DNA of 64,000 bases from Halomonas sp. (GCF_033549285.1 NZ_JAWSUJ010000011.1:1757-65756), one strand, 5' to 3'; positions 16,440 through 19,302 are shown, numbered from the stretch's first letter. Numbers and translations are program-made. The notes: generated from the sequence alone by a model not told the origin.

Positions 16440-17341
16440 GCGACGGCATCTCGCCCCGCGCCGCCCACCTCGGCATGCTGCTGTGGGCGGCGCTGGTGGG
16501 GCTGTCGTTTCCCGCGGTGGGCGCGATGAGCGAACTGCCGCCGTTCTCGCTCACCGCGCTGCGCTTCGTCATCGCCTGCAGCGGCCTGTGGTGGCTGGCC
16601 CGGCGCTCGCCGGACTTCCTCCCCGCCTGGCGGCGGCTACCGCTCTATGCGCTGATGGGGCTCTGCCTGGCCGGCTTCTTCGGGGCCATGTTCTGGGCGG
16701 CGCACCATGCCACGGCGCTCTCCATGGCCACCCTCTTCGTCACGGTGCCGCTGCTGGCCTTCCTGCTGGGGCTGGGCTTCGGCGTGGAACGGCTGGCCTG
16801 GCGCCTGCCGGCGATCCTGGCGCTGGGGGCGGCGGGGGCGCTGGGCCTGGCCTTCGCCGAATCCCTGGCGAAGGGCGGGCGCCTGCAGTTCGGGATCGGC
16901 GAGGCGGTGTTCTTCCTGGGGTGTCTCTCCACGGCGCTCTATCCGGTGCTCAGCAAGTGGGGGCTTGCGACCGGGCGCCTGCCGGATTCGGCGGCGGTGC
17001 GCACCTTCTGGAGCCTGGGCCTGGGCGCCGTGCTGATCGGGCTGCTGGGGCTCGCCGTCGAGCCGGTGGGGCGCCTGGCCACCATGAGCGGCCGCGACCT
17101 GCTGCTGCTGGTCTACCTGGGCCTCTTCTCCAGTGCCCTGACCTTCTGGCTCCTGCAGCGCGCCACCTCGGCGCTCACCCCGGGGGCGGTCACCGCCTAC
17201 AGCTACCTGGTGCCCTTCGTCTCCATGCTGCTGCTGTTCGTCCGCGAGCCCGAGCGGATCGGCTGGGTCTGGCTGCCGGGCAGCCTGCTGGTGGTCGTGG
17301 CGATCGCGCTGCTGCTGCGTAACGGCCGGGCGGCCGGCTAG
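16436..17341 (+). CDS. EamA/DMT family transporter
   Basis: ORF 16436..17341 has about 10 TM segments and an Ala/Leu/Gly-rich duplicated EamA pattern. Its TTG start overlaps the DUF2218 stop; an ATG at 16475 is an alternative start. Confidence 0.8.
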
Positions 17342-19302
17342 TCGGCCTCGTCCTTCCCCGCGGGCTCGCCGGCTGCCTCGCCGGGAAAGGCCAGTCGGAT
17401 CTCGTCGTGCAGGCGGCGGGTATCGGTGATGTGGCGGCGCGAGAAGTGGAAGGGCACCAGGCGTGCCACCCCGGCCGCCCCGGCGATCTCGCCGCAGGCC
17501 CGGGCGGTCAGGTGGCCGGTGCGTCGGGCCTGCTCCGCCTCGGCCGTAAGGAACGGCGCCTCGCAGAAGAGCACCCGGGCGCCCCGCGCCAGGGCGGCCA
17601 GGCGCCGGCGGTTCTCTGCGGTGTCGCCAAGGTCGGTGGCATAGACCAGCCGCTCCCCCGGCCGGGTCAGCAGCAGGGCCTGTGCCAGGCTGGCCGCGCT
17701 CCGGGTGGTGCCGTCCGGCAGCTGGATCCGGGCCTCTCCCTCGCCCGCCAGGACATGATGCTTGAGCGTGCCGAGCCAGGGGCCCGGCGGCCAGCCATGG
17801 GCTTCCAGCCGCTCCTTGCGCACCGCGACCTGCCGTTCGGGCTCCAGGGCATAGGCCAGCACCGGCGTGCCATGGTCGAGGGTGGTGGCCCGCACGCGAA
17901 AGCCGAGCTCCTCGTGCAGCAGGCCGCCGGGGGTCGGGCGCGCGGGCAGGGGGGTGGGGCGCGCCTCGCCGGCGACGATCCCCCAGCGCAGGAGGCTCTC
18001 GCCGTGCAGCTCGCCGACCTCGAAGCGGGGTGCCTTCTCGTCGACCCGGTCCCAGAGGATGCCGCTCACCAGCCCCTGCAGGTGCTCGGCCAGCCCAGGC
18101 GGGCCATAGAGCCGGCAGGCCGGGTACTCACCGATGCGCGAGCGCAGCAGCCACAGGAAGCCGCTGATGTGGTCGAAGTGGGCGTGGCTGATGAAGACGT
18201 CGCTCACCTGGTGGGCGAGGCGCGCGGGCAGGCGGCCGGGGTCGCCCAGGTCGAACAGCAGGCTGCGCGACTGGTGGCGCAGCCGCAGGTGCAGCAGCGG
18301 GTCGCCGAAGACGCCGTTGACCAGGGTCGCGGTGAAGCTGCCGAGATCCGCCCGGGGGCGCGGGCCGTCGCGGCTCTCCAGGGGCGCGGGGGTGTCGTCC
18401 GGCGCGGGCGTATCGAGGGTGGTTGCGTGGGGATGCGCGGTGCCCAGCTGGCCGTCGCGGCCGCGGCGGGCATCGCGGACCACCAGGGTGTGAGGCGTGC
18501 CGGCAAGCGGGGGCGTGCGAATCCGCAGTCGGTCATCCTCCAGCGCCAGGATCTCGCCCAGCCCCAGGGTGTCGCCTCGTGCGTCGAGCAGCCCGACCTG
18601 GCGCCCCGCCCAGGCCTCGGGGGCGCTGCGCGGCGGGGTGGTGCCGGTCAGGGCCAGCGCGGGCAGCTCGAGCACGGCCTCGTGGGCCTGCGCCAGCCAG
18701 GCGTCCCAGTCGTCAGTGCGACGCGCGCGGCGCCGATGCTTTCCTGGGTGGCGGGCCCGCGAGTCCGGCGCCAGGGTGACGACCTCCCGCCCCAGGGCGC
18801 GACACTCCTCGTGCAGCGGGAAGGGCGCCGTTTCTGCCGCCAGCACCAGCAGCGCGCCGACGCCCGCGGCCTTTGCCAGCGCCGGCAGCAGCTCGGCCCC
18901 GGCGGCACCGCGTACCACCCCCGGGGCGTCCAGCAGCAGCGCCCCGGCGGGGGCCTGTTCGGCCAGCCGTCGCACCGCCTGCACCAGCGGCAAGCGGAAG
19001 CGGGCGGCATCCAGGGAGGCCAGGGCGGCGATCGCTTCCAGCCGCCACTCCCCACTTTCCCAGCGGCCCAGGCAGGCCGCACCGGGTGGCCCGATGCCGG
19101 GCAGCCCCGGGTCGGCGCTCAGGCAGTGGCATGCCTGGCCCCGGGCGGCCAGGGTCGCCGCGGCGGCGCGCACCAGGGTGCTCTTGCCGCTGCCCGGCGC
19201 GCCGGCCACCAGCACGCGCTCATGGCGCCGCAGCAGGGCCAGCAGGGGATGGTCCGCGGGAAGGGGCTCGGTCGGTGCAGGCATGGTGATGGCCCTCGGC
19301 AT
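17338..19302 (-). CDS. fusion protein: Clp1/Grc3-like P-loop polynucleotide kinase domain plus RNase Z-like metallo-beta-lactamase domain
   Basis: Part of ORF 17338..20103, trimmed to the ATG at 19302 (or 19284), because everything upstream is antisense to dapB. It has a Walker [10 protein letters not shown] (19203->19177), followed by ADPGLPG and LLLDAPGVV...LLVL blocks as in Clp1-type kinases. It also has the HxHxDH motif HAHFDH (18186->18169), then [18 protein letters not shown]...LPDG (the RNase Z exosite-region pattern), YATDLGDT and VPFHFS. Its stop overlaps the EamA stop at CTAG (17338-17341). Confidence 0.75.

Follow-up and report, generated by a model that had tools for sequence, protein, structure and literature searches.

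A Clp1-type polynucleotide kinase joined to an RNase Z-type nuclease in one conserved bacterial protein: a candidate RNA end-processing enzyme

We have analyzed a stretch of 64,000 nt from Halomonas sp. (GCF_033549285.1, NZ_JAWSUJ010000011.1:1757-65756), referred to below as the window, and describe here one of its genes, in which a Clp1/Grc3-like kinase domain is followed by an RNase Z-like nuclease domain in a single polypeptide (the fusion). An earlier note, made from the sequence alone, had proposed a single unbroken frame of 654 codons for this gene, and both prediction of open reading frames (ORFs) and translation confirm it, the frame running from ATG at 19302 to TAG at 17340–17338 on the minus strand. 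All motifs quoted there are located in the translation, at the residue numbers given: GAPGSGKST (34–42), ADPGLPG (63–69), LLLDAPGVV (122–130) and the lid segment (188–196) in the kinase half, LFDLGD, HAHFDH (373–378) and the arm segment ending in LPDG (503–531) in the nuclease half. The gene is divergent from dapB (Pfam DapB_N/C), with approximately 105 bp between the two starts, and its stop codon shares CTAG with a convergent EamA gene (Pfam EamA), both as noted earlier. The features are listed in Table 1.

Table 1. Features of the fusion gene, of its neighbors in the window, and of RtcA-containing loci in other genomes (locus handles precede the coordinates in the latter).
Feature	Position	Strand	Basis or remark
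Fusion coding sequence, Clp1 kinase + RNase Z	17338..19302	-	654 codons + TAG; ORF, translation, homologues, selection
Clp1-type P-loop polynucleotide kinase domain, residues ~20-203	18694..19245	-	Pfam CLP1_P, P-loop-free profile, Foldseek
Walker A/P-loop G34-APGSGKS-T42, with K40 and S41	19177..19203	-	G34, K40, S/T41 invariant, 81/81
Walker B equivalent D64-P-G-L-P	19099..19113	-	Aligned to Grc3 'LDLDPGQP' (6of2_B); Asp kept, Gln position variable
Clasp equivalent L123-L-D-A-P-G128-V129-V-R131-G132	18907..18936	-	Aligned to 'NTxGWxxG' of Clp1/Grc3, Val for Trp
Lid-region helix K188...R191...R195-T...W199	18706..18741	-	Aligned to human CLP1 'FRRECR'; helix 188-203 in model
All-beta domain, residues ~204-294, equivalent of the Clp1 C-terminal domain	18421..18693	-	Strands 207-288 in model; Foldseek
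Pro/Asp-rich disordered linker, residues ~295-320	18343..18420	-	pLDDT <50 at 295-312; poorly conserved; dN/dS to ~1
RNase Z/ElaC-type metallo-beta-lactamase domain, residues ~321-645	17368..18342	-	NCBIfam, PDB sequence matches, Foldseek
His motif H373-A-H375-F-D377-H378, metal ligands	18169..18186	-	Invariant, 81/81
Flexible arm/exosite, residues ~496-535, PPGPWLGxLK...LPDG	17698..17817	-	Aligned to E. coli RNase BN arm
Divergent intergenic region shared with dapB, presumed promoters	19303..19407		None detected by consensus
dapB	19408-20211		Divergent from the fusion
DUF2218 gene	16179-16439	+	4-bp overlap with the EamA gene
EamA transporter gene	16436-17341	+	4-bp overlap with the DUF2218 gene
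CorA Mg2+ channel	15012-16142	-	
HNH_2 endonuclease-like protein	13940-14935	-	Pfam 34 bits, PADLOC 'HNH' 41 bits
tmRNA gene	5044-5423	-	Tag ANDDNYAQGALAA
tRNA-Leu(GAG)	32561-32647	+	3'-CCA encoded
tRNA-Met(CAT)	32759-32835	+	3'-CCA encoded
RtcA upstream of and co-directional with the fusion	L051:550-3945; L060:1810-5511; L098		
RtcA divergent from the fusion	L069:4521-7693; L085:3766-6938		

Mechanically, the ORF of the fusion gene reaches an upstream GTG at 20103, the extra part being antisense to dapB; this extension is an artefact, as the region has 75% G+C. A second in-frame ATG is found at 19284 (Met7), preceded at 9 nt by GAGG, which is more similar to a Shine–Dalgarno sequence than what precedes 19302, and the closest relatives begin with MPAP, in agreement with a start at Met7. 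The true product may be 648 aa long, and the annotated lengths of 644–648 aa may be right. The ratio of nonsynonymous to synonymous substitution rates (dN/dS) is 0.26–0.54 in the N-terminal half, 0.18–0.35 in the C-terminal half, and reaches approximately one in the linker, and both halves are under purifying selection. As both Pfam domains score above their cut-offs, full-length homologues number in the hundreds, and dN/dS is 0.18–0.54, the gene goes well beyond a chance ORF. The fusion gene (17000–19500 in the window) has a G+C fraction of 0.75–0.76, markedly above the 0.64–0.69 of its flanks, although it is syntenic across Halomonadaceae; the codon bias of a gene with weak expression or an ancient horizontal transfer may be the cause. 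Long ORFs overlap the gene in other frames and strands, e.g., 17407–20211 (+) and 18497–19411 (+), one of them, of 934 aa, continuing into the frame of dapB; homology supports none of them, and they result from the 75% G+C.

The AlphaFold2 single-chain model of the fusion, built on a 32-sequence alignment, has mean predicted local distance difference test (pLDDT) 88 and predicted template modeling score (pTM) 0.82, with disorder confined to residues 1–7, 295–312 (the linker) and 646–654. A Foldseek search of the PDB splits the matches into two clean sets, RNase Z/BN and Clp1/Grc3. The identities of the two domains are established by the independent agreement of profile searches, of a profile lacking the P-loop, and of structure searches.

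Residues ~20–294 are a complete prokaryotic-type Clp1, consisting of a P-loop kinase domain and a beta-rich C-terminal domain, and the Clp1/Grc3-like assignment of this half in the earlier note is upheld by all three kinds of search. CLP1_P (PF16575) matches residues 34–200 with 38.1–41.3 bits against a cut-off of 26.6, covering profile positions 1–183 of 188, and is the sole Pfam family spanning the whole kinase domain, other P-loop families covering approximately 30–45 residues around Walker A. PDB hits of the N-terminal half as a single sequence were weak matches to P-loop proteins, MeaB and ArsA, and a full profile of this half was swamped by multi-P-loop proteins (RecA concatemers, midasin), which was fixed by removal of the P-loop. 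The profile so obtained (residues 56–295 from 13 family members and four distant stand-alone relatives, run against the whole PDB) retrieves Grc3 at 6e-9, human CLP1 and Caenorhabditis elegans Clp1 at 2e-6, and NOL9 at 0.04, with unrelated proteins at E>=0.4. Together with the whole-domain CLP1_P match, it rules out unrelated P-loop families, i.e., proteins of the MeaB, APS (adenylylsulfate) kinase or MobB type. Structural matches of the kinase half are human CLP1 in the TSEN complex (8hmy_E, 4e-13), C. elegans and yeast Clp1, and Grc3, including 4oi0, 4ohv and 8puw_B. The alignments to 8hmy_E, 4oi0 and 8puw_B span approximately 285–380 columns; those to Clp1, of ~285–300 columns, take in the kinase domain and the C-terminal domain, and hence the half is complete. 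Distant stand-alone prokaryotic Clp1-like proteins of approximately 285–300 aa share both domains and carry the canonical DxDxGQ.

Motifs were counted in the window protein and 80 genome-encoded relatives, 81 sequences of 50–100% identity. The published Clp1 signature comprises Walker A GxxxxGK[S/T], Walker B [D/E]hhQ, Clasp [T/S/L]xGW and Lid RxxxxR (PMC6777427). Walker A is present in the fusion as G34-APGSG-K40-S41, and eleven positions of the kinase half are invariant in all 81 sequences: G34, K40, S/T41, D64, G66, D125, G128, R131, R191, R195 and W199. The lid-region arginines R191 and R195 are spaced as RxxxR, compared to the published RxxxxR, and align to the lid region of human CLP1 in an approximate register.

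Residues ~321–645 are an RNase Z/ElaC of the short form, with its flexible arm for the binding of tRNA; the complete RNase Z-like fold with an exosite segment, read earlier from the sequence, is seen in the NCBIfam, PDB and Foldseek matches and in the alignment of the arm. Lactamase_B_2 scores 59–62 bits on this half against the Pfam cut-off of 27, and the closest NCBIfam model is NF002558 “ribonuclease Z” (PRK02126 subfamily), with 277–280 bits over positions 5–337 of 345. The nearest solved structures by sequence are Escherichia coli RNase BN/ZiPD (2cbn), Bacillus subtilis RNase Z (1y44) and human ELAC1 (3zwf), and the best structural matches are RNase Z/BN 2cbn, 2fk6, 4gcw and 1y44, with E ~1e-17 to 1e-13, the first three at about 2e-17; rice TMS5/RNase ZS1 (7xgt) is also found. 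H373, H375, D377, H378, H477, D557, E581, H597 and H619 are invariant, and D560 is conserved in 80 of the 81 sequences. The segment C-E581-A-P-F aligns to “hEAT”, and G-H597-L-T to “GHST” (the HEAT and HST loops). The arm signature PPGP-W-L-x-x-L-K...L-P-D-G is kept, with P508 in 78, K514 in all 81 and G531 in 71 sequences. [quoted passage not shown]

The fusion has 1438 database matches, of which the best 120 are all approximately 640–680 aa long and contain both Pfam domains. They are named “MBL fold metallo-hydrolase”, “Clp1/GlmU family protein” or “ribonuclease Z/BN”. Both halves are members of well-known superfamilies, and the databases list the fusion, which is uncharacterized, under such generic names. 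The survey of its phylogenetic distribution suggested in the earlier note finds it in at least 301 genomes of a one-genome-per-species collection, including complete chromosomes. The hosts are mostly Gammaproteobacteria, and they include Halomonadaceae, Chromatiales, Ectothiorhodospiraceae, Thioalkalispiraceae, Methylobacter/Crenothrix, Thiodiazotropha and Nitrosomonas, along with a few metagenome-assembled genomes of Desulfobulbia and Nitrospiraceae; the window protein is 93% identical to that of Halomonas ventosae. Searched exhaustively on its own, the kinase half yields only 427 representatives among 1.84 billion, and the 150 matches listed are fusions, fragments of fusions (in the cases inspected) and distant stand-alone Clp1-like proteins. 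A natural split version of the protein was considered and rejected, as the ~300-aa kinase-half entries inspected are fragments ending in the linker or at contig ends; for another candidate, P0271, no contig position was found. P0369 is a true stand-alone nuclease, 58% identical and without a kinase neighbor, and further nuclease-half relatives without a kinase, of less than 40% identity, are found on alphaproteobacterial megaplasmids.

Pairwise distances of the two halves correlate with r=0.87, and hence the halves have been inherited as one unit, with the kinase half evolving faster (mean p-distance 0.49, compared to 0.38 for the nuclease half). Together, these data indicate one old fusion whose two modules have been transmitted jointly and are both under selection. 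A distant 606-aa protein, P0234 (29% identical), has the same order of Clp1 and metallo-beta-lactamase domains, and its arm is much shortened, PPGP being followed by the next strand. Judging by this sequence, older or divergent branches may have lost recognition of the tRNA arm. We find no phage copy of the fusion gene and no full-length plasmid match, and the PADLOC defence models give P-loop-level matches of at most 21.5 bits; a role in defence or in mobile elements was thus rejected, the gene being chromosomal and in no PADLOC family.

The layout of the locus, with DUF2218-EamA, the convergent fusion gene, and divergent dapB-carA, is kept in 29–30 of approximately 32 Halomonadaceae loci. 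The DUF2218 and EamA genes, kept together in 29 Halomonadaceae loci, probably form one operon, convergent on the fusion gene, and the Halomonadaceae neighbors carry no functional hint. Promoter and terminator consensus scans of positions 16300–20300 yield nothing, and Rfam finds no RNA element near the gene. Clustering of ORFs within 5 kb on either side in 80 genome loci reveals no conserved neighbor outside Halomonadaceae, the most frequent families, seemingly incidental, being a nitroreductase in 7 of 48 loci and CheR and PGA_cap in 6 each; the fusion gene would thus act alone and is not part of a conserved operon. RtcB, ligases and tRNA genes, expected as neighbors in the earlier note, are not conserved, and the only one of this kind to appear, sporadically, is RtcA. 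This RNA 3'-phosphate cyclase (~250–260 bits) adjoins the fusion gene in two lineages, whose fusion proteins are 62% identical to one another. A THUMP-domain protein of 179 aa separates RtcA from the fusion in L060 and L098; RtcB and RtcR were not seen near the RtcA-fusion loci, and neither Hen1 nor a ligase is linked to the fusion in the loci examined.

Some other genes at these loci may be mentioned. A calcineurin-like phosphoesterase (3209–4180) adjoins RtcA in L069. In one genus only, Methylobacter, a beta-CASP/RMMBL nuclease (RNase J/CPSF-like metallo-beta-lactamase) is located approximately two genes from the fusion (L047:3417-4835, L071:680-2098, L075:3428-4963). In the window, the HNH_2 and CorA genes lie between DUF2218-EamA and the dnaJ side and are present in approximately 12–13 of ~32 Halomonadaceae loci, thus constituting a variable islet.

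We tentatively propose, at what we feel to be nearly even chances, that the fusion is a bifunctional RNA end-processing (“end-healing”) enzyme. The Clp1 module would use ATP to phosphorylate 5'-OH ends of RNA, while the RNase Z module would trim the 3' end or remove a 2',3'-cyclic phosphate, leaving 3'-OH. Ends with 5'-OH and 2',3'-cyclic phosphate, produced by metal-independent RNases (toxins, RNase I-type enzymes) or by spontaneous breakage, would thereby be converted to 5'-phosphate and 3'-OH. Once healed, the ends could be substrates for rebuilding by the CCA-adding enzyme, for sealing by a classical ligase, or for decay by 5'-phosphate-stimulated RNase E and 3'-OH-dependent exonucleases; as no ligase is linked to the gene, both repair and degradation are possible outcomes. 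Likely substrates would be broken tRNA-like RNAs, handled at both ends.

This proposal is supported by the invariance of catalytic residues in both halves and by the conservation of the arm. A kinase combined with a 3'-end phosphoesterase is the established logic of the end-healers T4 Pnkp, bacterial Pnkp and Trl1. Classical removal of the tRNA trailer is not obviously needed, as both tRNA genes of the window encode CCA, and we count the RtcA neighbor of the two lineages in favor of end-healing, since RtcA is an RNA-end enzyme. Each of the two activities has precedents among relatives of the respective half. ELAC1 strips 2',3'-cyclic phosphate from tRNAs cleaved by ANKZF1, letting CCA be re-added (PMC11602120), and rice TMS5/RNase ZS1 is described as a tRNA cyclic phosphatase (PMC11897441). 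The bacterial Ts-Clp1 and archaeal Ph-Clp1 are prokaryotic 5'-OH RNA kinases that also phosphorylate DNA (PMC6777427).

A more specific version of the proposal, which we consider possible but doubtful, is that of a self-contained bacterial tRNA/RNA end-repair enzyme assembled from “eukaryote/archaea-style” parts and independent of RtcB and Pnkp/Hen1. The RNase Z scaffold, a homodimer, would hold the elbow of a damaged tRNA-like RNA. The nuclease site would take off the 2',3'-cyclic phosphate or a 3' tail that is damaged, and phosphorylation of the 5'-OH of the same molecule would fall to the tethered, non-canonical kinase, which has no clasp Trp.

A number of observations weigh against end-healing. 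The Gln position of Walker B (67) is occupied by Ser in 44 and Leu in 31 sequences, with Gln in just one, and the Trp position of the clasp (129, in the segment A-P-G128-V129) by Val in 71, Leu in seven and other residues in three, never by Trp. In Grc3, replacement of the clasp Trp (W364A) almost eliminates the kinase activity, and that of the Walker B Gln (Q286A) decreases it 4–5 fold (PMC5900568). The order of P-loop, clasp and lid read in the earlier note is thus only partly right, as the clasp Trp is replaced; by its sequence, the family clearly belongs to the Clp1 superfamily by descent, yet fails one of the defining motifs. With the clasp Trp absent and the Walker B Gln lost, the 5'-OH RNA kinase activity of the Clp1 half, or its specificity, is predicted but not assured. 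In the nuclease half, the NF002558 score is under the cut-off of 315, and those of the RNase Z equivalog models are far under theirs (TIGR02651, 94.5 vs. 293; NF000801, 85.8 vs. 252). The PxKxRN loop that marks bona fide RNase Z cannot be recognized, the equivalent segment, in the register read from the alignment with the E. coli sequence, being L-V-N329-G-V-F-G-D-P (N329-G-x-x-G-D). Finally, across the clustered loci the conserved neighbors include neither a ligase nor RtcB nor a CCA-adding enzyme, and RtcA is adjacent in only ~5 of 113 loci, being absent from close relatives (L082, L089) of the first RtcA lineage.

The absence of the clasp Trp and the Walker B Gln would also fit a housekeeping RNase Z/BN nuclease, involved in tRNA 3' processing or in mRNA/sRNA turnover, whose Clp1 module is not a kinase but binds ATP in a regulatory or RNA-recruiting role. 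Yeast Clp1, which binds ATP and has no kinase activity, is such a non-catalytic scaffold, and the same explanation agrees with the location of the gene among housekeeping genes (the dnaJ side, dapB, carAB) in conserved Halomonadaceae synteny and with the existence of kinase-free relatives of the nuclease half (P0369, the plasmid matches). We still consider it unlikely, because D64, the P-loop Lys and Ser/Thr, and the two lid-region arginines are invariant, a pattern expected for phosphotransfer rather than mere binding, and because, with CCA encoded in the tRNA genes seen, the chief housekeeping task of RNase Z falls away. The substrates might also be other than RNA, with an ElaC-like phosphodiesterase or sulfatase acting on cyclic nucleotides or phosphonate/sulfate esters and a kinase of small molecules or DNA; ElaC-fold arylsulfatase 8gyg, YhfI and PNGM-1 are indeed among the Foldseek matches, NCBIfam gives a weak match to a cyclic-nucleotide phosphodiesterase (33 bits vs. 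a cut-off of 400), the clasp is non-canonical, and DNA is phosphorylated by Ph-Clp1 and Ts-Clp1 (PMC6777427). Given that true RNase Z/BN enzymes are the best matches by a wide margin, that the tRNA-binding arm, E581 and H597 are conserved, and that the sole recurrent telling neighbors, RtcA and the THUMP protein, are RNA-related, this seems quite improbable.

A nuclease and a Clp1-family kinase in one polypeptide, with Grc3 among the best structural and sequence matches, bring to mind Las1 and Grc3, which are obligate partners (PMC5900568). On this analogy the earlier note had suggested coupled activity, in which a cut made in RNA by the RNase Z domain would give the tethered Clp1 kinase a new 5' end to phosphorylate. 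Las1, however, is a metal-independent nuclease leaving 5'-OH and 2',3'-cyclic phosphate, and hence needs Grc3, whereas hydrolysis by metallo-beta-lactamase/RNase Z enzymes yields 5'-phosphate and 3'-OH. As RNase Z-type cleavage leaves a 5'-phosphate, the kinase would have no work on the new end, and coupling of this kind is very improbable; of the function suggested earlier, cut-and-phosphorylate is the unlikely part, and the “end-healing” wording is the better fit. There remains an artefact: an error of assembly or a frameshift might have merged two adjacent genes, or the ORF might be non-coding and owed to high G+C. The many long spurious ORFs at high G+C and the database entries holding one half only might speak for this. 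It is effectively refuted by the same unbroken architecture in the species genomes surveyed, complete chromosomes among them, by purifying selection in both halves and the confident model, and by the half-length entries, which, where inspected, prove to be fragments.

The end-healing enzyme proposed here may be compared with several known systems. Clp1/Grc3/Nol9 kinases, including the stand-alone proteins of Pyrococcus horikoshii and Thermus scotoductus, have the same fold and domain order, kinase then beta domain, and share with the fusion Walker A, the Walker B Asp, the clasp Gly and the lid-region arginines. The fusion differs from them in the attached nuclease, in the clasp Trp mostly changed to Val or Leu and the Walker B Gln to Ser or Leu, in the RxxxR spacing of the lid, and in the family-specific invariant residues D125, R131 and W199. 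With short RNase Z/RNase BN (E. coli 2cbn, B. subtilis 1y44/2fk6, ELAC1, TMS5) it shares the metallo-beta-lactamase fold, HxHxDH, the ligands of motifs III–V, the HEAT/HST-like residues and the arm PPGP...LK...DG, but is only ~20–26% identical to them, falls below the NCBIfam cut-offs, has PxKxRN replaced and carries the N-terminal kinase; its nuclease half groups with the uncharacterized PRK02126 subfamily. T4 Pnkp, bacterial Pnkp (with Hen1) and fungal/plant Trl1 follow the same proposed logic of a 5'-OH kinase and a 3' phosphoesterase in one polypeptide. This is a functional analogy and not homology, as their domains are T4-Pnk-type P-loops with HAD/DxD, calcineurin-like or 2H phosphoesterases. 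In Las1-Grc3 a nuclease is likewise physically coupled to a Clp1-family kinase, but Las1 is of the HEPN type, and the complex is non-covalent and eukaryotic, unlike the covalent bacterial fusion with an RNase Z-type nuclease.

Clp1-family kinases, regarded as RNA-processing enzymes of eukaryotes and archaea, occur rarely in bacteria. In the dedicated 2019 survey of Clp1, the length of bacterial proteins is 333 +/- 74 aa, the sole bacterial member characterized biochemically is the stand-alone Thermus protein, and the fusion is unmentioned. No description of the fusion or experiment on it was found in the literature covered, which includes this survey and leaves the RNA-repair survey by Burroughs and Aravind (2016) outside, in line with the earlier note, whose author knew of no characterized bacterial example.

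The well-conserved lineage described here, found in Halomonas, methanotrophs, sulfur oxidizers and Nitrosomonas, joins a complete Clp1 to a complete RNase Z. If end-healing is its function, it would be the third type of machinery by which bacteria repair or clean up RNA ends, beside RtcAB and Pnkp/Hen1, would provide a function for the bacterial “PRK02126 RNase Z” subfamily, and would be a compact two-activity enzyme for manipulation of RNA ends. The handling of 5'-OH and 2',3'-cyclic phosphate fragments made by toxins or stress in CCA-encoding bacteria would then become testable, and, should the repair version of the proposal be true, the fusion would represent a previously unrecognized bacterial pathway of RNA repair or quality control.

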